Source: Bdellovibrionales bacterium
GTDB lineage: Bacteria > Bdellovibrionota > Bdellovibrionia > Bdellovibrionales > JAGQZY01
DNA length: 64,000 bases
Reading direction: 5' to 3'
Assembly (NCBI GenBank): GCA_964230555.1
Contig: CAXRIX010000178.1
Coordinates: 141-64,140 of the forward strand
Numbering within the stretch: position 1 is the first letter of the stretch; each line of letters starts with the position of its first letter. The translations under genes and the position numbers were made by a program. The notes under the pieces are model-generated. The model searched no databases. It was not told the DNA's origin and saw only the letters and a program-made list of their open reading frames with translations. Below, piece by piece: positions 17,157 through 49,598 of the stretch.

Positions 17157-17702
17157 CTACCGAAGTTTTTTGAAGATATCGGTCATGAAAGTTGTAAAAA
17201 TCTTTATTTCCTCAGAGCCGACGTTGGGCGAGTAAACAACCCCAAAATAAACAGCGAAAATTGTGTTGATTTGCGCTTTGCTGGCGGTCGGTGCGATTTG
17301 TTGGATTTTTCGATGAAAAGCTTTTTCTATTTTACTAAGGGCATCACCAATTTCATTCGGCTTTTCTCGATAATTCAAATAGAAGGCGCAGAGATAGGGC
17401 ATTCTCTCGTAAAACTGGCGAGCCTCAATCATTCCTTGTTCAAACTCTCCGCGTTTCCACATTTCCATGCGCTCTTCAGAAAGACCAATGAACTCTTCAC
17501 CAATGATGGCGACCGCGGCTTGGAGAATACTCATTTTTGAGCGACCAAAATAATAGTAGATCAACGAACGTGTGATTTTACTTTTTCTCGACAATTCGGT
17601 CATTGTCCATTTGAGGTGCCCTTTCTTAAATTCCAATTCAAGAGCGCAGTTCAAAACTTTCCAGTAAATCTCATCTTTTTTGTTTTTTTCTTCAGCGGCC
17701 AT
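17157..17702 (-). CDS. TetR/AcrR family transcriptional regulator
   Basis: 181 aa. N-terminal HTH block WTMTELSRKSKITRSLIYYYFGRSKMSIL. Confidence 0.85.
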   Translation of the reverse strand: MAAEEKNKKDEIYWKVLNCALELEFKKGHLKWTMTELSRKSKITRSLIYYYFGRSKMSILQAAVAIIGEEFIGLSEERMEMWKRGEFEQGMIEARQFYERMPYLCAFYLNYREKPNEIGDALSKIEKAFHRKIQQIAPTASKAQINTIFAVYFGVVYSPNVGSEEIKIFTTFMTDIFKKLR

Positions 17703-17832
17703 AGAAAAATGGTGTCACAGTTCTTCACAAAATCCAACGACCGGCTGGCTTGGATCAGCGACTCTGGTCCTTACATTCAAAGCCCCAAAAATCAGGGACC
17801 CAGGGATTGGTTTTCGACAGATTCCTTGATAT

Positions 17833-17902
17833 CTGTCAAAAAAACGTGTCATTTTGACAGGTTACAGGATTTACTGTCAGTGGAATCGATGGCTTTAGAC
17901 AG
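17833..17902. promoter_or_regulatory. cluster of CTGTCA/TGACAG motifs including a perfect 9-bp inverted repeat CTGTCAAAA-N10-TTTTGACAG; candidate TetR operator region
   Basis: Read directly: IR arms at 17833-17841 and 17852-17860, CTGTCAG at 17874-17880, GACAG at 17898-17902. It lies 130-200 bp upstream of the tetR start and overlaps a weak TTTAGA-N17-TTTAAT plus-strand promoter (17894-17922). Confidence 0.35.
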
Positions 17903-17928
17903 AGTATTTCAGTATCTTTAATGGTGTT

Positions 17929-18166
17929 GAAGGGGATGTTTGGGACCGAGTTTGGGGGCGGTCCGAAGCGGATCCTCAAGGTTTTGGGCCGAGTTTTTGG
18001 GGGCGGCCCAAAGCCGCATTTTAGGCTTAAGGCCCAGTTTGGGGGTGGCTTAAAGCCCAACCAACCAACGGATTGGTTTGTCGACTGACCTATTCAATAC
18101 GAGCTATCGTTCGTTTCAATTTCACTTCAATTTCAATAGCCCGCCGGAAGCGGGCTTTCTTTTTTA
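17929..18166 (+). ncRNA. candidate structured small RNA: three tandem stem-loops with a conserved loop AGTTT(TT)GGGGG and covarying stems, a fourth small hairpin, an 11-nt tandem repeat and an intrinsic terminator
   Basis: Stem-loops: GGACCG(17943-48)/CGGTCC(17959-64); GGGCCG(17986-91)/CGGCCC(18004-09); TTAAGgCC(18027-34)/GGCTTAA(18047-53). Fourth hairpin AACCAA-CGGA-TTGGTT (18063-78). Tandem TTCAATTTCAc/TTCAATTTCAa (18115-36). The 5' end is only inferred from the weak promoter. Confidence 0.4.
18138..18166 (+). terminator. rho-independent terminator
   Basis: AGCCCGC-CGGAA-GCGGGCT followed by TTCTTTTTT. The U-tract is on the plus strand only. Confidence 0.75.
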
Positions 18167-18206
18167 AAGCTTCCAACAAAATCCAAATTGAAAAGCAAAA
18201 ACGAGA

Positions 18207-18446
18207 CTATTTTTTTGCTTTTTTGTCTTTCTTATCTTTTTTGGGATCCTGGCCTCGCGCTTTGCGAGTCATGGCCTCAACCCTTTTGAGAGCGGCATCA
18301 GCTTCAGCCTTGGGATTGGGTTTGCTAGTGGATGAATCTTTTTCTTTGGTTTTTTTCACGCCGGCATGATCGTCATGATGAGCTGAAAATGCGGGCTGTG
18401 ACAGGCCAAAAATAAATGGCAATGTAATAAGTAGGTTGCGAATCAT
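18207..18446 (-). CDS. small secreted lysine-rich protein
   Basis: 79 aa. GGGGGAA RBS. Signal peptide ..GLSQPAFS|AHHDDH. Basic tail KKDKKDKKAKK. Confidence 0.55.
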   Translation of the reverse strand: MIRNLLITLPFIFGLSQPAFSAHHDDHAGVKKTKEKDSSTSKPNPKAEADAALKRVEAMTRKARGQDPKKDKKDKKAKK

Positions 18447-18582: not shown

Positions 18583-19791
18583 TTAAAACTGGGTCGCGAA
18601 TTGAATCGAGCCACCCTCCCAGGTCTCTCCACTCCCGAACTTGTCTAAATCAAATGTGAGAAGAAGGTTAAAGTGAGTGGTCTGATCGGTGACAATCCGG
18701 TAGCGCCAATTCATTCGGTGTTCAAGACCGTTATCCCGATCGAGAGTGCTGCGAAAAACTTTGGGCCCTTGGGCGCGATGCCAAGTCATTTCGTAACCAA
18801 AATCCAAGTGATGGAGGGACTCTAACGAAGTAAAGCCCCAGGGGTTCACCCAGAAATGGGGCAGCAGATCATTGTGAATAACACCGCCTTGTAGGGAATC
18901 CCAATGGCTGTAAAGCGCCCGCAAACCATAAAGTCGAAGCCAGGAATGGGGCCGTTGAATTTGCACCAGGCCGTCAAGTGTTTGATTGCTCCAGGCCCCT
19001 TCCGAATTAATGACCTTTTCAGTATCCTCTTCGCTGGATTGTAAAACATTGAATTCCGTTTGAAGATACTGGTCGCCATTGGAGTCCATTTGATGTCGGG
19101 ATTGCCACTGCAGTTGAAAACCACTGTAGTTATAAACTCTGCCATTTTCGAAGACCTGTTGTGTTTGCAGATCTTTGCGCACACTGGCTTGAATAAAAGA
19201 CCCAGAATCGAACCAACGCCAAATGGCGCCAAGGCTCGCAGGTTGTTTGGTGTAGCGATCGCTTCCTTCGTTACGCTTGTTATGGGAGAAGTCGACCCAG
19301 GTATAGTAGAGGCGAAGATTGGATTGGTCTGAAAACAAGATGGTACTAGCAAGCCCCATATCGTCTTGTTTCTTCAATGTTGAAGGTTCGCCATAAAGAG
19401 ACAGGTGCCACCACGAAGTTGGCTTCAAATAAAACTCAAATATCAACGACCTTCGACTTTGCTTTAATGAACCGACATCAACATAGGTTAACTGAAAATC
19501 AAACCATTCATTGAGCTGTTTGCGCATACGCAAACGGCCCTGAGTGAAAAAACGGGTCGGCCCCAAGCTGCCGGCGGTGTACTGAAAAACATTGTTATTG
19601 CTGAGCCAACTCTCCGTCCAAGGCAAGAGAAATTGATAGGTCAGACGATCCGATTCATATTCTGACCCGATCAATGAGGGACGATTGACCTCTGTCTTCT
19701 CATCTTCGCTAAGATGCTCGTACTCAGGGACAACCGCCCACCCTTTACCGCTTAAAAATACAATAAGAAAAATTGTTAAAGGGAGGCGCAT
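18583..19791 (-). CDS. putative outer-membrane beta-barrel protein
   Basis: Signal peptide MRLPLTIFLIVFLSGKGWA (ATG 19791). Alternating beta-strand-like composition. C-terminal ..IQFATQF with terminal Phe. Confidence 0.55.
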   Translation of the reverse strand: MRLPLTIFLIVFLSGKGWAVVPEYEHLSEDEKTEVNRPSLIGSEYESDRLTYQFLLPWTESWLSNNNVFQYTAGSLGPTRFFTQGRLRMRKQLNEWFDFQLTYVDVGSLKQSRRSLIFEFYLKPTSWWHLSLYGEPSTLKKQDDMGLASTILFSDQSNLRLYYTWVDFSHNKRNEGSDRYTKQPASLGAIWRWFDSGSFIQASVRKDLQTQQVFENGRVYNYSGFQLQWQSRHQMDSNGDQYLQTEFNVLQSSEEDTEKVINSEGAWSNQTLDGLVQIQRPHSWLRLYGLRALYSHWDSLQGGVIHNDLLPHFWVNPWGFTSLESLHHLDFGYEMTWHRAQGPKVFRSTLDRDNGLEHRMNWRYRIVTDQTTHFNLLLTFDLDKFGSGETWEGGSIQFATQF

Positions 19792-20591
19792 TTTTCTTTC
19801 AAAGACTGTATCAGCCACTGATGGGCGGCTGTTTTTTCGAGGTCAGTACGGAAGATCAGAGATATCTCAAACGAGGGTTTGAAGATTTGTAAACTTTTAA
19901 GGTCTGAGTTTTGGACTTTTAAGGTATTGGGGAGCAGTCCCATGACTTTGTTGTTCTCGAGTATCGCCATCAACACATCGTAGTCGTTGACCCAGCGCAC
20001 GCGATGTTTTTTGAACTTCTTTAGAATCTTTTCTGCGTTTATCATCGTCTGATTAACAAAAATAGTTTGTTCAAAATTTCCAGAGGCGGAATAAAGCTCA
20101 ATATTTTCTTCCCAAAGTTTAACTTTTTTTATGTCAGAGTGACTGAAGGTTGAGGCCACCACCGCAAAGTCACAACGGTACTCGGTGACCGCTTCGATAG
20201 CAGAGCGAGAATTCATGAACTGATAAGACAGATGCACTGCCGGTTGATCGGCCAACACCGATTCCAGTAAGGGGGCCACGGTTCGTCCTAAAATAGGGTG
20301 AACAGCCAAATTAATTTTACCGAAAATTTCTTCGCCTAAAGTTTCGCAAGCCATCTGTGCCTGTTCCAATTCTTGAACCACCTTGCGAAACGAAGATAGG
20401 TAAACTTCGCCTGTGGGAGTCAGGGCGACGCCAGTGGGCATACGAACAAACAGAGGGCGGCCGACCTCTTCTTCCATTTTTTGGATCTCACGGGTTAGGC
20501 TGGGCTGCGAGATTGCTAAGAATTCCGAAGCCTTAGAAAAGCTTTTGTGGTCGGATAGAGCTAAAAATCGTTTGATGTTTCGAATGTCCAT
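19776..20591 (-). CDS. LysR family transcriptional regulator
   Basis: 271 aa. N-terminal HTH MDIRNIKRFLALSDHKSFSKASEFLAISQPSLTREIQKMEEEVG. Confidence 0.9.
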   Translation of the reverse strand: MDIRNIKRFLALSDHKSFSKASEFLAISQPSLTREIQKMEEEVGRPLFVRMPTGVALTPTGEVYLSSFRKVVQELEQAQMACETLGEEIFGKINLAVHPILGRTVAPLLESVLADQPAVHLSYQFMNSRSAIEAVTEYRCDFAVVASTFSHSDIKKVKLWEENIELYSASGNFEQTIFVNQTMINAEKILKKFKKHRVRWVNDYDVLMAILENNKVMGLLPNTLKVQNSDLKSLQIFKPSFEISLIFRTDLEKTAAHQWLIQSLKEKCASL

Positions 20592-20697: not shown

Positions 20698-21057
20698 ATG
20701 AACAGAAGACGATTTTTTCAAGCCACAGGGGCGACGGCATTGGCACTCAGCTTACCTTTCAGTGCTCAGGCCATGGAAGCTGACAAACAAGTTCTGATCG
20801 ATGCGGCCATCAGCTCGAATCATGGACACGCACTGAGTTTAAGTATTGGTGATGTGGTCGAGATGTTGTCAAAAACCAAACAGGGTCAAAACCAAGAGAT
20901 CAGTATTCAAGGGCAGAGTGGGCATCCACACAGTGTGTCTTTAAATCAAGAGATGCTGTTGGCGTTGTTGATTGATCAAGAACTTGAAGTGGAGTCATCT
21001 GTGGATGCCGGTCACTCCCACGGTGTTTTAATAAATCTAGAGGTTGTTACTTCTTAG
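20698..21057 (+). CDS. small Tat-exported protein with three GHxH repeats
   Basis: GGAGGGAA RBS. Twin-arginine signal MNRRRFFQATGATALALSLPFSAQA. Three repeats: NHGHALSLS, SGHPHSVSL, AGHSHGVLI. Confidence 0.6.
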   Translation: MNRRRFFQATGATALALSLPFSAQAMEADKQVLIDAAISSNHGHALSLSIGDVVEMLSKTKQGQNQEISIQGQSGHPHSVSLNQEMLLALLIDQELEVESSVDAGHSHGVLINLEVVTS

Positions 21058-21744: not shown

Positions 21745-22574
21745 TATTGGCCTCCTCCGCCGGCACGATAATAGTAAACATCTCCGTAGACCGTTTCTTC
21801 TAAGTTGGAGCCGGTTTCGGCTTCAAAGTTACTTGTCACCACATTGTTTCGTAGTGGAATGTTGATGAGCTTGGTTATATCAGTGTACTGCGCGCCACTC
21901 CGACACTCGGCGGTTGTGTTCATTTCCATAGTCGGACACCAGCGCCATTCTGATTGCTCACTGGAACGAAATTTTCGAAACACAACCCTCATTTCAACCA
22001 TACGAACGGTATCACCGGCATCGACAGGAACACCTCCCGATGAGAGTTCGAATTCGACGATGTTGTCGAAAAACATTTCGGCGTTGCGAGAGGAAAGAGT
22101 GGTGATGCCGGCTCCCGGGTTCGATGAAGAGACAAAAAGAATACCTGGTGTGGTGGCTGTCGGATTTTTGAAGTAGAGGCCTGTGGCTCGCAAGTCACTG
22201 CCGGGGTTGGTCGAACTGGTGTAGCCGGCTTCGCGAATGAAGGCACCGACGGTGGTCGGAGGGGTTGCTAAAGCGGCATCACGCGAGGATCGAAACGTGC
22301 GAATCTCACCTGCGCCGCCGCCAATATTGGTGATATCAATATCAGTCCACTGCGCGTTGATGGCTTGGCCAACGTAGTGGGGGATATTCATTTCCAAAGC
22401 TTGGGCTGTTTCAAGAGTGTCGGCGGATCGTCGAGTGAAAGCATCGGCCTCAAGTATCGATGACAAGAGCATCGCGCCGCCAAGAATAATAAGAGTGGAA
22501 GCAGCCGTGGCGACCATCAGTTCCACTAAAGTCATTCCGTTTTGATTATGTAAAAAACGTTTAGTCGTCATCAT
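21744..22574 (-). CDS. type IV pilin-like protein with a prepilin N-terminal cleavage/methylation motif (PilW-like size)
   Basis: The tracked ORF extends to 23000 through a GC-rich shadow frame. The credible start is ATGATG at 22574/22571 (GAGGA RBS), giving MMTTKRFLHNQNG|MTLVELMVATAASTLIILGG with Gly-1 and Glu+5. Confidence 0.75.
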   Translation of the reverse strand: MMTTKRFLHNQNGMTLVELMVATAASTLIILGGAMLLSSILEADAFTRRSADTLETAQALEMNIPHYVGQAINAQWTDIDITNIGGGAGEIRTFRSSRDAALATPPTTVGAFIREAGYTSSTNPGSDLRATGLYFKNPTATTPGILFVSSSNPGAGITTLSSRNAEMFFDNIVEFELSSGGVPVDAGDTVRMVEMRVVFRKFRSSEQSEWRWCPTMEMNTTAECRSGAQYTDITKLINIPLRNNVVTSNFEAETGSNLEETVYGDVYYYRAGGGGQ

Positions 22575-24336
22575 TGTCGTTATCCTCGGCATCTTCTTTT
22601 TCTTGTGCCGCTTGTTCGGCGGCGGCGGCGGCTTCAGCGGCCAGTCGAGCCGCTTCCTCGGCGGCTTCGGCTGCGGCTTCGGCTGCGGCGGCGGCCGCTT
22701 CCGCAGCTTCCTGAGCCGGGCTTGAAATCGCGTCACCCAACGGGCCGGCTGTTGACGCGACGGCATCAGCAGCGGCCCGAGCCGCTGTCGCTTCGGCGCG
22801 CGCCGATGTTGCCGAAGCTTGCGCGGCATTGGCGGCACTGCGTGCTGCGGTGGCGCTGCTGCGAGCACTGGAAGCACTGGTTGTTGAACCGGTTGCTGAG
22901 GCCGCAGCCCCTTGTGCCGCTGACAAGGAAGATTGAGCGGCGGCGTTGTGTCCAGCGGCTGCCGAGGCGCTCGCTCCTGCTGAGCTGACATTCCCAGCAA
23001 CGCTATTCATCAAACTGTCCATGCCGACAGTTACCTCAGCAATGGTTTGCACAGGTAGACCACTGATGGCCGACGCTTGCGCGGCCGCCGCAGCGGTTGA
23101 AAACTGCGTGCCACCCACTTCGTAACCAACACCACCGGAATCTGAACTTTCATCAAAACTGGTGGTGACATTGGTGCTATTTCCATAGGCCGTGGCCGGT
23201 TGAGTGTCGGAAACGTTTCCGAGAGCGTCGAAGGTTTTGACTTCAACAGAAGCCGCGCAGTTGTCAGGAACATTGAATCTTTTTGTAATCGTCGCTGTGG
23301 AGCGCATGACAGTGGTGCTGCCTGATTCACCGCAAAGAGTGAGTTGATCACAGGGCCTCCACGGCGTTCGGTTTCCGACTCCGGTGGCAGATCCCATAGC
23401 CCGCCCCAGCGGGTTGGTGATAAAGTTATGGGTTGAGCGACAAACCATGTGAGTGCCGGCGTCCATAACATTTTGAAAAGTAAAGGTTCCGCCACTAGCC
23501 GTTAGAATTGGCATTTTGGGTTCTCTGGGTTGTCGGTCAAATTCAAATTTTTCTTGTACGGCGCAAGACACGGTACGCTCACCAGCGGTTTGATCGTTGG
23601 CTGGTCGGGTGGTGACTTGGACTTCGACTTCAAGACCTCGATCCGCTCGATACATTGAAAAATCAGCGATTCCCATTTGCTGAGCCATTGGCGGTTCGTG
23701 GCGGGCATACGGGCGAATTCTTAGAGGTCGGGTGCAGGGGAGAATTTGACGAGTGGACCAGTCATAGGGGCGAACAACGAGTGTCGCTTCAACACTTTGA
23801 TTTCCCACCACATCACCGGGGTACAAATTGGCCAGTTCGTTAGAGCTTGTTATGAGTGCTCCTGGGTCACAAACGTCTGCAACTCTATTGTAGATGGCAA
23901 GCAATCCGTTGATTGAAGAGTGAATAAGTCGAGGTGTGTGACTGCGAAACGGTGGTGAACCAGAGGAAAAATCGACGGCCGGAACGTTGGGCCATCTTTC
24001 TCTAAAGAGCTCGGAACTGACAGTCAATTCTGAAGTCACTCCATCGGGATTGTAATTGGTGTTTCCTTGGTGCCATCCTGAGCTGTTTAATTGCGTTCCC
24101 GCCGAATCGACGCGGGTTGGATAAAAGTGTCCCTGTACTCCATCGGCGCGAATTTTATTAATAATGTTGTGAGCAACCGATCGACAGACGCTGGGTGAAC
24201 CGTTGTTCGCCTGTTGTTGTTTTAGGGAGTTCAAAATTGTTGGCGCGGCCATGGACGCGACAGCCAAAAGCAGAACAGCGGAGATCAACACCGTCACTAA
24301 CGATTCACCGCGCTGATTGGTTATTAGCCGAAACAT
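22561..24336 (-). CDS. large pilin-like (PilX-type N-terminus) protein with a long Ala/Ser-rich C-terminal tail and acidic terminus
   Basis: The ATG at 24336 has a GGGGGGAAG RBS (tracked start is 24369). N-terminus MFRLITNQRG|ESLVTVLISAVLLLAV. The last roughly 190 residues are A/S/T/E low complexity ending EKEDAEDNDNDDD. Confidence 0.6.
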   Translation of the reverse strand: MFRLITNQRGESLVTVLISAVLLLAVASMAAPTILNSLKQQQANNGSPSVCRSVAHNIINKIRADGVQGHFYPTRVDSAGTQLNSSGWHQGNTNYNPDGVTSELTVSSELFRERWPNVPAVDFSSGSPPFRSHTPRLIHSSINGLLAIYNRVADVCDPGALITSSNELANLYPGDVVGNQSVEATLVVRPYDWSTRQILPCTRPLRIRPYARHEPPMAQQMGIADFSMYRADRGLEVEVQVTTRPANDQTAGERTVSCAVQEKFEFDRQPREPKMPILTASGGTFTFQNVMDAGTHMVCRSTHNFITNPLGRAMGSATGVGNRTPWRPCDQLTLCGESGSTTVMRSTATITKRFNVPDNCAASVEVKTFDALGNVSDTQPATAYGNSTNVTTSFDESSDSGGVGYEVGGTQFSTAAAAAQASAISGLPVQTIAEVTVGMDSLMNSVAGNVSSAGASASAAAGHNAAAQSSLSAAQGAAASATGSTTSASSARSSATAARSAANAAQASATSARAEATAARAAADAVASTAGPLGDAISSPAQEAAEAAAAAAEAAAEAAEEAARLAAEAAAAAEQAAQEKEDAEDNDNDDD

Positions 24337-47323: not shown

Positions 47324-47469
47324 CGAAGGATAAGAACCTCTTTCCTGATAGGTTTTAGATCTTAAGGCCAAAACCAAAAACAAGCTGTTGGATTCTTGTT
47401 TATCTTAACTTTTCTTAAATTTAAAAAATAAATCGACGTTGACTATTAATTTTTAAGGCTTAAGTTACG

Positions 47470-47556
47470 GCCAAACCTAGGGGCGGCGTAAGCCTGAGAC
47501 ACAGTTTACTGTGAACCCTTGAACCTGATCCAGATCGTACTGGCGTAGGAAAGGAG
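47470..47556 (+). promoter_or_regulatory. TPP (thiamine pyrophosphate, THI-box) riboswitch
   Basis: CCTAGGGGCGGCGTAAGCCTGAGACACAGTTTACTGTGAACCCTTGAACCTGATCCAGATCGTACTGGCGTAGGAAAGG contains the invariant CUGAGA and ACCCUU-GAACCUGAUC..GCGUAGGAA cores. P1 is CCUA/UAGG. The 3' side abuts the AAGGAG RBS of the GTG start at 47562. Confidence 0.9.
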
Positions 47557-47561
47557 TTTTT

Positions 47562-49598
47562 GTGAAGATCTTCACTCTAATTGCACTCATTTGTATTTTA
47601 TCAAGCAAGGCCTTTGGTTCCAGTGACATGGAACATATCGAGGTTCGCGGTTCAGAATCGGAATTTTTCCATTTAAGTCAGCCGGCCCAAGAAAGTCTGC
47701 ATCGGCAACAATTGGAAGAACGAAGTCTGTTTCATGGTGAACAAGTGTTGAGCCAGTTTGCCAATATCAGCACCGCCAGTAGCACCAACCGTCTGCGCTA
47801 TTTTAAAATACGTGGCATTGGTGAACGAAGTGAATACGACACCATTCCATCAAATTCAGTGGGACTATTTTATGACCACATTGATCTGAGCGGCCTGGGA
47901 GGCATCCTGGCTCTCTATGATATTCATCAAGTTGAGGTCATGAAAGGTCCGCAAACCTTTTTGTTTGGCGATTCTTCCTTGGGTGGTAACGTTTTATTAA
48001 GTAGCTCTGAAATTTCAAGAAGCCACCGATCCCTTTGGGGCGGTCTTGGGTCACAGAATCGAAACACCATGGGTACAAGTCTCCATGCCGAGGTTTCGGA
48101 TATTTTTTCATTTAAGCTTGGAGTGCAAAAGCATGAATCCGACGGGTTTTTTTATAATTCCTATTATCAAAAATTCACTTCGGCACGGGATGAGCTTTTT
48201 GCAAATTTAGGCTGGCAATTGGATTGGGGAGCTTCACGCTTACGGGCCAGTCATATCTATGGGCATAACGATAATGGCAACGACCTGTGGAACACCGATG
48301 GCTCCTACACCGTGTTATCGGATAAAATAGGCGAGGATGACCAACTGACCCATGGTCACTCCTTAGAGTGGACGGGGCCGATCACTGAGACGCTACAGTA
48401 TTTAGTCATTGGTTCTTACAGTCTTTCGGATCAGTTGGTCTCTTATGATGAAGACTGGAATAACAATACCTTTTGGAACAGCGTGACGGGTTGGGAAAAG
48501 AATTATGATTATTTTAGATCCTACAACAGACGCAAAACCAATCTGCATTTAAAATCTCTTCTACAACATCAGTGGGGAGGGTGGAATGTGTCTTATGGCC
48601 TTCATTACTATCAAAAAACAGAGGCGACCGATGTTAATTCCTTTAGAAATGCAACACTAAGAAATAGCTTACAAGCCGAGTACCAAGCTGACAAAGTAGC
48701 CCTTTTAACCAATGTCAATTATCACCTGTCTTCCCATTCAAGCTTGAATCTCAGTAGTCGTGTTGAGGATCAGGATATCGAATACCAGGACACCAATAGT
48801 TTTTCGAATCAAAAAGACAACCAAGCTTGGGCGTTTAATCTTCTTTATAGCTACACCCAAGGACCTCATATTTGGCGGGCCTTGGTATCCCGCGGCTTCA
48901 AAGGGGCGGGCTTCAATCCGGAAATCAATCTAACCCCTGAGCAGCAAGAGTACGAGCCTGAGTACGCTATGAATTATGAGATCTCTTGGGAATTTCAAAA
49001 ACCCACTTTTAAAAACAATGTCAGTCTTTTCTACATGGATCGTCGCCATCATCAAATCACCACTTCAAGCCAAGATGACCCTTCTGACCCTAGTCAATTC
49101 ACATTGTTCGTTGATAATGCCGCTCAAAGCCACCACTACGGACTAGAATGGCAGGGGGATTGGAGTCCTTCGTCTTTTTTTACATTGCAAACCAGTGTTG
49201 GTTTGATGAAAGCACAATTCGTGGAGTATCAGTTGCGCAATCGTTCCTATGGGGGACGAGAACTGGCGCATTCGCCCTCTTATACTTTTTCCGTCACCAC
49301 TCATTTTCGTCTGACACCCTGGCTGTATTGGAATGTCAATTCGACCGGTCGCGATGGATTCTACTATTCCAACAGTCATGACCAAACCAATGGGCCGATT
49401 GGACTCATCAATTCCAGCTTGCATTGGATCGTCAGTTCCAGACTGCGGATGTCGCTTTGGGGAAACAATCTTTTCAGCAAACGCTACTCGCAAAGGGGCT
49501 TTTATTTTGGTAATGAACCTCCTGATTTTGAAACCCGTTTGTATCAACAAAACGCCAACCCTTTCGAGTGGGGTGTGCGGGCGCAATACCAGTTTTAA
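47562..49598 (+). CDS. TonB-dependent outer-membrane receptor (riboswitch-controlled; predicted thiamine or thiamine-precursor uptake)
   Basis: 678 aa with a GTG start. Signal peptide. Plug blocks (HIEVRGS, NRLRYFKIRGIGERS, VEVMKGPQTFLFG). C-terminal ..WGVRAQYQF. Confidence 0.9.
   Translation: MKIFTLIALICILSSKAFGSSDMEHIEVRGSESEFFHLSQPAQESLHRQQLEERSLFHGEQVLSQFANISTASSTNRLRYFKIRGIGERSEYDTIPSNSVGLFYDHIDLSGLGGILALYDIHQVEVMKGPQTFLFGDSSLGGNVLLSSSEISRSHRSLWGGLGSQNRNTMGTSLHAEVSDIFSFKLGVQKHESDGFFYNSYYQKFTSARDELFANLGWQLDWGASRLRASHIYGHNDNGNDLWNTDGSYTVLSDKIGEDDQLTHGHSLEWTGPITETLQYLVIGSYSLSDQLVSYDEDWNNNTFWNSVTGWEKNYDYFRSYNRRKTNLHLKSLLQHQWGGWNVSYGLHYYQKTEATDVNSFRNATLRNSLQAEYQADKVALLTNVNYHLSSHSSLNLSSRVEDQDIEYQDTNSFSNQKDNQAWAFNLLYSYTQGPHIWRALVSRGFKGAGFNPEINLTPEQQEYEPEYAMNYEISWEFQKPTFKNNVSLFYMDRRHHQITTSSQDDPSDPSQFTLFVDNAAQSHHYGLEWQGDWSPSSFFTLQTSVGLMKAQFVEYQLRNRSYGGRELAHSPSYTFSVTTHFRLTPWLYWNVNSTGRDGFYYSNSHDQTNGPIGLINSSLHWIVSSRLRMSLWGNNLFSKRYSQRGFYFGNEPPDFETRLYQQNANPFEWGVRAQYQF

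Follow-up and report, generated by a model that had tools for sequence, protein, structure and literature searches.

The 64,000-nt stretch of DNA analysed here (the window; contig CAXRIX010000178.1 of a Bdellovibrionales bacterium, assembly GCA_964230555.1) carries a TetR-family regulator gene of 181 aa at 17157–17702 on the minus strand. A gap of about 500 bp separates the tetR start (17702) from the next gene (18207–18446, minus strand), and the open reading frames (ORFs) in this gap are all short, overlap each other and lie in several frames. Divergently from tetR, a small RNA (sRNA) transcript of about 240 nt, with an approximate 5' end, is predicted at 17923–18166 on the plus strand from the conservation, the consensus fold and the asymmetry between G-U and A-C pairs. 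The locus is very probably a genuine gene for a structured non-coding RNA. An earlier note on this DNA had proposed a novel structured plus-strand sRNA of this length divergent from TetR, and the proposal is upheld by the lack of an Rfam match, the conserved fold and the plus-strand asymmetry, the transcription being a prediction.

The regulator gene was assigned from its ORF, from Pfam and from a profile comparison with known structures. Pfam TetR_N gave 22 bits (E 1.4e-4), just under the 24-bit cut-off, and a profile made from 20 orthologues matched the TetR-family structures 3egq_A and 6el2_A with E values of ~1e-5. The protein has 115 homologues, mostly from Bdellovibrionales; those named in their source records are TetR/AcrR regulators, and many carry PF00440. 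Judged by its predicted N-terminal TetR-type helix-turn-helix domain, the neighbouring protein is a member of the TetR family.

Within 17938–18057, three hairpins stand in tandem and share the loop AGUUU(UU)GGGGG. According to the repeat finder, the units start 42–45 nt apart, and each is an inverted repeat around AGTTTGGGGG, but around AGTTTTTGGGGG in unit 2. Module 1 (17932–17977; loop AGUUUGGGGG at 17949–17958; 49.4 bits with the covariance model), identified from its fold and compensatory changes, has 9 pairs. The 5' leader that follows the putative −10 box reads GUGUUGA(A/G)(A/G)GGG, and its GGGG pairs with the C-rich linker behind unit 1. Thus, module 1 becomes a long irregular hairpin, and the fold of 17926–17979 has −22.4 kcal/mol (z −2.8). 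Module 2 (17980–18015; loop AGUUUUUGGGGG at 17992–18003; 50.8 bits), found by its fold and as an inverted repeat, has a 12-bp stem of −20.6 kcal/mol (z −3.5). Module 3 (18024–18057; loop AGUUUGGGGG at 18036–18045; 49.1 bits) belongs to a conserved unit type and has about 10 pairs with C.U as the top pair; it is weak when folded alone (−11.7 kcal/mol, z only −0.4). The exact 10-mer of the loop occurs twice in the window, both times at the sRNA locus. The three tandem units with a shared loop and self-complementary stems are present as the earlier note described them, with stems longer than stated and with the leader extension of unit 1.

Behind the modules, the 3' domain consists of hairpin 4 (18060–18081), hairpin 5 (18099–18114, ACGAGC-UAUC-GUUCGU) and an intrinsic terminator (18138–18166), in which a GC-rich stem is followed by UUUCUUUUUU. 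Hairpin 4, recognized from its conservation and compensatory stem changes, has the loop CGGA with an invariant GGA at 18070–18072. This fourth hairpin had been noticed before and is present, but it is thermodynamically weak (z −0.4), and the conserved hairpin 5 (−5.9 kcal/mol, z −4.1) had been missed. The plus-strand terminator, which had likewise been proposed, is called by the terminator scan, folds with −13.2 kcal/mol (z −2.5) and is conserved with compensatory changes in 11 loci. The 11-nt tandem repeat (18115–18135) is present too, but is regarded as incidental because it is not kept in the closest relatives. The whole 256-nt region gives a fold z of just −2.2. The element is judged to be above chance from the comparative evidence, and not from single-sequence folding.

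For the comparison, loci around TetR homologues (L-numbers) were collected: 80 genome loci via the TetR alignment and 14 more via exact-protein look-ups. In 14 further distinct loci of Bdellovibrionales, which come from metagenomes or metagenome-assembled genomes (MAGs), the same hairpin lies divergently to the TetR orthologue, at TetR identities of 66–98%. The carriers besides the window are L001–L005, L009, L053 and L201–L209, with L203 duplicating L202 and L209 duplicating L208. Three units are present in the window, L001–L003, L202 and L206, two units in L053, L201 and L205, and one unit in L004, L005, L009, L204, L207 and L208. The number of modules thus ranges from 1 to 3 and varies even between close relatives. 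The unit types hold their own stem flavour across species (GACCG, GGCCG and AGCCC...UGGCU), and the unit 3 type (GAGCCC...UGGCUUC) is kept in L001–L003, L053, L202, L205 and L206. The consensus fold of the six three-unit orthologues consists of six hairpins.

The element is absent beside six TetR homologues of 61–70% identity, five of which (L006 and L211–L214) lie directly downstream of an Nfu/NifU gene and one of which (L210) follows another gene, and it is absent beside all the more distant TetR homologues among the collected loci. A metagenome scan with the 16-mer CCSAGTTTGGGGGYGG returned at least 120 stretches; no stem of the element is among the matches listed, and they look like chance matches in unrelated sequence. 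Viral contigs scanned with a two-unit pattern gave 0 matches. The predicted sRNA family is restricted to one clade of uncultured Bdellovibrionales, in which several records bear the label Pseudobdellovibrionaceae. At the same TetR-divergent position, L007 (3485–3800, minus strand) and the equivalent region of L008 (TetR identity 57%) contain another structured region of about 300 nt, with a strong terminator, two AGUUUGGG motifs, a different fold and no match to the covariance model of the hairpin unit (R1). This region may be distantly related to the sRNA, or it may be an RNA with no relation to it.

An alignment of 28 distinct units was used to score the 12-pair helix against 500 shuffles and against controls in which the partner strand was slid. 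Eight positions (UUUGGGGG) of the 10-nt loop are invariant in the 28 units. Directly below the closing pair, two C-G pairs are kept in 28/28 and 27/28 units while the remaining stem pairs vary, and a recurrent mismatch seven pairs down the stem is unpaired in 17/28. Within the helix, 86.6% of the cells pair, compared with 71.3% in the shuffles (0/500 reach the observed value), and 57 cells are changed on both sides, compared with 17.9 in the shuffles; because the units are related by paralogy and orthology, the shuffle control overstates the significance. The slide control keeps this relatedness and agrees: when the partner is slid by 1–3 columns, the pairing falls to 32–54%. Compensatory changes are seen in 10 of the 12 stem pairs. 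When only orthologous copies of unit 1 with its leader extension are aligned (nine loci), 9 of 15 pairs are compensatory, and the full-length alignment of the six three-unit loci agrees with the covariation. These results confirm in orthologous loci the covarying stems under a constant loop that had been seen within the window.

The 3' domain behaves in the same way across 11 loci, with compensatory changes in both of its hairpins and in the terminator. In hairpin 4, columns 16/23 have six changes on both sides, and the GGA is invariant in 11/11 loci. In hairpin 5 (CGAGC/GCUCG-like), five of the six pairs are compensatory. As to the strand, 32 G-U cells were counted against 3 A-C cells, and the helix pairs at 86.6% on the plus strand but at 78.0% on the minus strand. 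This asymmetry indicates that the RNA is on the plus strand. An RNA of the minus strand folds comparably as a single sequence, but was ruled out by the G-U/A-C counts, by its lower model scores of 11–20 bits and by the orientation of the terminator.

The nucleotide identities of the whole RNA region to L001, L002 and L003 are 88, 81 and 79% (module part, 94, 87 and 85%). The corresponding values are 86, 77 and 76% for the tetR coding sequence, 71, 72 and 49% for the spacer next to tetR, and 74, 63 and 65% from the terminator through the downstream 79-aa gene. The identities indicate that the RNA, conserved as much as or more than the tetR coding sequence and above the flanking spacer, is under selection. 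As a rival reading, a small protein was considered: the 55-aa ORF at 17921–18088 would encode a peptide with FGGG(P/L)K repeats, and the hairpins would be a by-product of these repeats. Only in the window and L002 do the three FGGG motifs share a frame (spacing 45 and 42), and there an ATG or GTG precedes them. The spacing shifts the frame in L001 (45/43), L003 (46/43), L202 (44/44), L205 (44) and L053 (68), and in-frame stops occur past the first FGGG in L003, L202, L206, L004 and L053. The conserved ATG of L005 does not share the frame of the FGGG motif. Among the 28 units, the would-be TTT GGG codons show no synonymous variation, and units 1 and 2 differ in the frame of the two bases that precede the loop. 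As the reading frame is not kept in the orthologues, the peptide was rejected and we give it next to no credence; the earlier statement that the locus holds no protein gene is borne out.

Tandem imperfect palindromes in an intergenic region also resemble repetitive extragenic palindromic (REP) elements, and the locus could be such a dispersed palindromic DNA element or a repeat bound by a protein purely at the DNA level. The search for dispersed copies with R1 covered the 64 kb of the window and up to ~8.5 kb from each relative, and no complete carrier genome. In the 64-kb window, R1 with filters off found three units only (49–51 bits), and the next match outside the locus has 12.8 bits. In 610 kb of 88 related loci, it found TetR-adjacent units only (37–54 bits), with 13 bits for the next match outside the element; with the further loci scanned, ~630 kb of related DNA contain no other copy. 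A constant loop with varying arms is the reverse of the pattern of REP elements or operators, and the excess of G-U over A-C reflects selection on one RNA strand and is against a DNA-level element. A dispersed or DNA-level repeat is thus extremely unlikely, and in this sampled DNA the dispersed copies that the earlier note had named as a refutation were not found.

Against Rfam (release 15) at gathering thresholds, no match was found at the sRNA locus. An E-value search of 17700–18250 gave chance-level matches of 22.5 bits or less, all far below the thresholds. The sole Rfam match in the window is an ordinary known element, a thiamine pyrophosphate (TPP) riboswitch aptamer at 47469–47568 on the plus strand (RF00059, 65.6 bits, gathering score 54.3). 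No published account of the sRNA family was listed by a full-text literature search on Bdellovibrio, small RNA and TetR.

Between tetR and the RNA, four TGACA/TGTCA half-sites in overlapping inverted repeats (17811–17880) form putative TetR operator(s) together with a tetR promoter, according to the repeat finder, the promoter scan and conservation. The arms are 17811–17822/17831–17842, 17833–17841/17852–17860, and TTGACA (17854–17859) with CTGTCAG (17874–17880). The second pair is the perfect 9-bp inverted repeat that had been pointed out as a possible TetR operator; as a repeat, it is present and forms part of the four-half-site array. The scan places a tetR promoter-like site at 17880–17851 on the minus strand (−35 CTGACA, −10 CAAAAT). 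The last two half-sites, which coincide with these predicted hexamers, are closely followed by the putative −35 of the RNA promoter. The positions of the half-sites are kept in most RNA-carrying loci, are weak or absent in the short-gap loci L004, L009 and L208, and are also kept in L007, a locus without the hairpin. The operator-like repeats fit autoregulation of TetR and possible co-regulation of the RNA.

The putative promoter of the RNA gene (17890–17918, plus strand) consists of TGGCTT (17890–17895), a 17-nt spacer and TATCTT (17913–17918), and was recognized from its recurrence across loci. In most of the 15 loci, a TATnTT-like box with an upstream TGGnTT-like motif keeps a constant distance to the first hairpin. 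The consensus promoter scan of the window did not call this promoter. The TTTAGA-N17-TTTAAT promoter proposed previously is possible, but the element conserved across loci is TATCTT, and the −10 box of the RNA gene is more likely TATCTT than TTTAAT. A sigma-54 promoter at the conserved TGG was rejected, as no GC lies 10 nt downstream (no GG-N10-GC).

On the other side of the RNA, the genes differ from locus to locus. A convergent secreted lysine-rich protein of 77–85 aa and an outer membrane protein (OMP)-like protein are encoded in the window, L001–L003 and L201, and the OMP-like protein alone in L204. A twin-arginine translocation (TAT)-signal protein gene is convergent in L009, and L005 has a putative tRNA-Asp. 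On the same strand as the RNA, a gene for a TAT-signal protein of ~119 aa with GHxH motifs follows 110–130 nt after the terminator in L053, L206 and L207, MscL is encoded in L202, and a Cys/His-rich protein in L208. These same-strand genes would suit a cis-acting leader or attenuator, in which the hairpins and the terminator form a regulated 5' leader and a ligand or protein controls the read-through. However, a convergent gene or a tRNA comes next in 8 of the 15 distinct loci (convergent in the window, L001–L003, L201, L204 and L009; tRNA in L005), the downstream genes are not constant, and the consensus fold shows no evident alternative pairing of the anti-terminator type. Several loci retain synteny next to TetR, with genes for a small membrane protein, a GNAT acetyltransferase and aminopeptidase N. 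In the 15 distinct loci, no protein gene other than that of TetR is strictly co-conserved with the hairpin. Since the pairing of TetR and RNA alone is constant, a functional link between the two is suggested, which argues against a cis-leader role; we regard such a leader as very improbable.

Some features of the neighbouring genes are noted here. The lysine-rich protein of the window (18207–18446, minus strand) belongs to a family with the motif AEADAALKRVEAMT, and a His-rich stretch follows the signal peptide in some relatives (AHHDDHAG in the window). The adjoining OMP-like protein gene (18583–19818, minus strand) belongs to a family of 360–410 aa. In the window, the TAT-signal protein of ~119 aa is encoded at 20698–21057 on the plus strand, 2.5 kb from the sRNA and beside a LysR gene; it has three GHxH motifs (NHGH, GHPH and GHSH) and no Pfam or NCBIfam family. 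The His-rich periplasmic proteins near the sRNA hint at a link to metal. Pfam and NCBIfam searches of the neighbouring 79-aa, 411-aa, 152-aa and 119-aa proteins gave no informative family. In L005, a putative tRNA (Asp, anticodon GUC; read by eye) replaces the usual 3' domain ~230 nt past the single-unit element, ~420–505 nt upstream of the TetR start and on the strand opposite to the TetR gene. The 11-mer ACAAAATCCAA occurs twice in the window, at 17727–17737 in the tetR leader region and at 18176–18186 on the plus strand just past the sRNA terminator, and L053, L206 and L207 have the similar C/A-rich CAAATCACAACA behind the terminator. The GC content of 22001–24000 is 0.554, compared with ~0.44 in the remainder of the window.

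The RNA probably acts in trans through its loops. As the best explanation overall, to which we give about an even chance, we propose a conserved trans-acting sRNA whose loops would base-pair with C/A-rich RNA targets. The sRNA would be made as an independent transcript from a promoter in the intergenic region common to the divergent TetR gene, and its level would be set from this operator-bearing region. The repeated loops would serve as redundant contact sites, in which the G/U-rich AGUUUGGGGG would pair with C/A-rich single-stranded sites (CCCCCAAACU-like) in the target RNAs, and extra modules would raise the valency. That the partner is an RNA reached by base pairing is favoured tentatively, somewhat short of an even chance, because a 10-nt single-stranded loop with eight invariant positions is typical of a seed, a weak support, and because GcvB and NrsZ provide precedents for a G/U-rich seed and for redundant modules, respectively. 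Most bacterial sRNAs act by base pairing, which also speaks against a protein partner.

Several points weigh against this explanation. The transcription of the sRNA is predicted from sequence, and every relative is a MAG or a metagenome contig. We infer the control of the RNA by TetR from the strict gene linkage and the conserved operator-like repeats alone. When the loop was paired by RNAduplex with the 81 gene starts of the window, none of them stood out (best −17.9 kcal/mol; mean −12.8, sd 2.9 kcal/mol). When CCCCCAAA/CCCCAAAC were sought in the window and all carrier loci, nothing conserved was found except the opposite strand of the element itself, and the neighbouring genes have no conserved complementary site. 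Upstream of the TAT-signal protein gene of the window, there is a G-rich Shine–Dalgarno sequence and no C/A-rich site. A same-strand gene follows the element in five loci. The family is also heterogeneous, as the single-unit loci L004, L005, L009 and L208 are without the domain of the GGA hairpin, the small hairpin and the terminator. Finally, the near-invariant C-G pairs and the recurrent mismatch are superfluous for a seed alone and are a better match to recognition by a protein.

The last point leads to a protein sponge or scaffold, in which an RNA-binding protein would read the G-rich loop and the fixed CCG/CGG top of the stem and be sequestered or assembled on the hairpins. Such a protein site would account for the loop and the two C-G pairs being fixed (28/28 and 27/28) and the mismatch holding its position (17/28) above a freely covarying lower stem, and the copy number of 1–3 among close relatives is in keeping with it. 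The separate GGA-loop hairpin, with GGA in all 11 loci, could additionally bind CsrA, and CsrA of Bdellovibrio is reported to be functional, with a regulon described as little known (PMC13443453). The repeated G-loops, however, are without the GGA needed by CsrA, which leaves a single GGA hairpin, and apart from TetR no candidate binding protein is consistently encoded beside the RNA. We consider a sponge or scaffold the close rival of base pairing, although somewhat less likely. TetR itself might be the protein, so that the RNA would be a decoy or anti-repressor titrating its own regulator. This possibility is kept because TetR is strictly co-conserved and the fixed loop, stem top and mismatch resemble a protein site, but it appears very unlikely. 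To our knowledge, binding of RNA to TetR has been achieved so far only with engineered TetR-binding aptamers.

The sRNA family alone settles no long-standing question, and its value lies elsewhere. Riboregulation in Bdellovibrio-like predatory bacteria is little known, as is stated for the CsrA regulon (PMC13443453). The simple anatomy, with one invariant 10-nt loop, 1–3 modules and a linked TetR-type regulator, makes the RNA experimentally tractable, and the family shows cleanly how sRNA modules evolve in copy number. Loops that act as seeds would define a regulon of C/A-rich targets under a signal sensed by TetR, and CCCCCAAAC-like sites would then be expected near translation starts. If the loops are protein sites, they would represent an unrecognized RNA-binding specificity.

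Several known systems share part of this anatomy. REP elements and bacterial interspersed mosaic elements (BIMEs) are likewise intergenic tandem imperfect palindromes, but the present element is not dispersed in the sampled DNA, and its loop is conserved rather than its arms. The guanidine-II (mini-ykkC) riboswitch has ACGR tetraloops that dimerise and lies directly upstream of the regulated gene. Both have tandem hairpins in which the loops are conserved and the stems covary freely, whereas the loops here are 10 nt, G-rich and not self-complementary, and most loci have no same-strand gene next. A type III toxin–antitoxin system, in which ToxI-like RNA repeats and a terminator precede a same-strand toxin gene, was rejected: the next gene of the window (18207–18446, minus strand) is convergent, and the same-strand neighbours elsewhere encode the TAT-signal, MscL and Cys/His-rich proteins.

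CsrB and RsmZ sequester CsrA, and CrcZ sequesters Hfq/Crc. Repeated hairpins with an identical short loop motif and a varying copy number are shared with CsrB/RsmY/RsmZ, and one invariant GGA loop is present here. The repeated loops here, however, are AGUUUGGGGG without GGA, only one hairpin has GGA, and there is no Rfam Csr/Rsm match. The RNA does not match a sponge of the Csr/Rsm type, which is defined by several GGA motifs in hairpin loops or single-stranded stretches, since the GGA loop is conserved in hairpin 4 only. GcvB is an sRNA divergent from gcvA, and its G/U-rich region pairs with C/A-rich sites upstream of start codons. The present RNA is similarly divergent from a transcription-factor gene and has a G/U-rich single-stranded region and an intrinsic terminator. 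In contrast, GcvB has a linear seed instead of repeated hairpin loops and a LysR-type regulator where the present locus has a TetR-type one, and no Rfam GcvB match was obtained.

NrsZ of Pseudomonas aeruginosa is a modular, processed sRNA with three similar stem-loop modules, a single one of which is sufficient for function (PMC4253122). NrsZ and the present RNA have in common tandem similar stem-loops in one transcript, encoded near the region of a regulator gene. There is no sequence or Rfam relationship, the loop sequence is different, and NrsZ depends on NtrB/C and RpoN, whereas no GG-N10-GC sigma-54 promoter is present at the window sRNA. Three modules followed by the terminator, in a presumed single transcript, are found in the window, L001–L003, L202 and L206. 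That one NrsZ module suffices fits the variation of 1–3 modules in the family. According to these comparisons, the predicted RNA represents a new family within a familiar class of sRNAs, those built of stem-loop modules and encoded divergently from a regulator.

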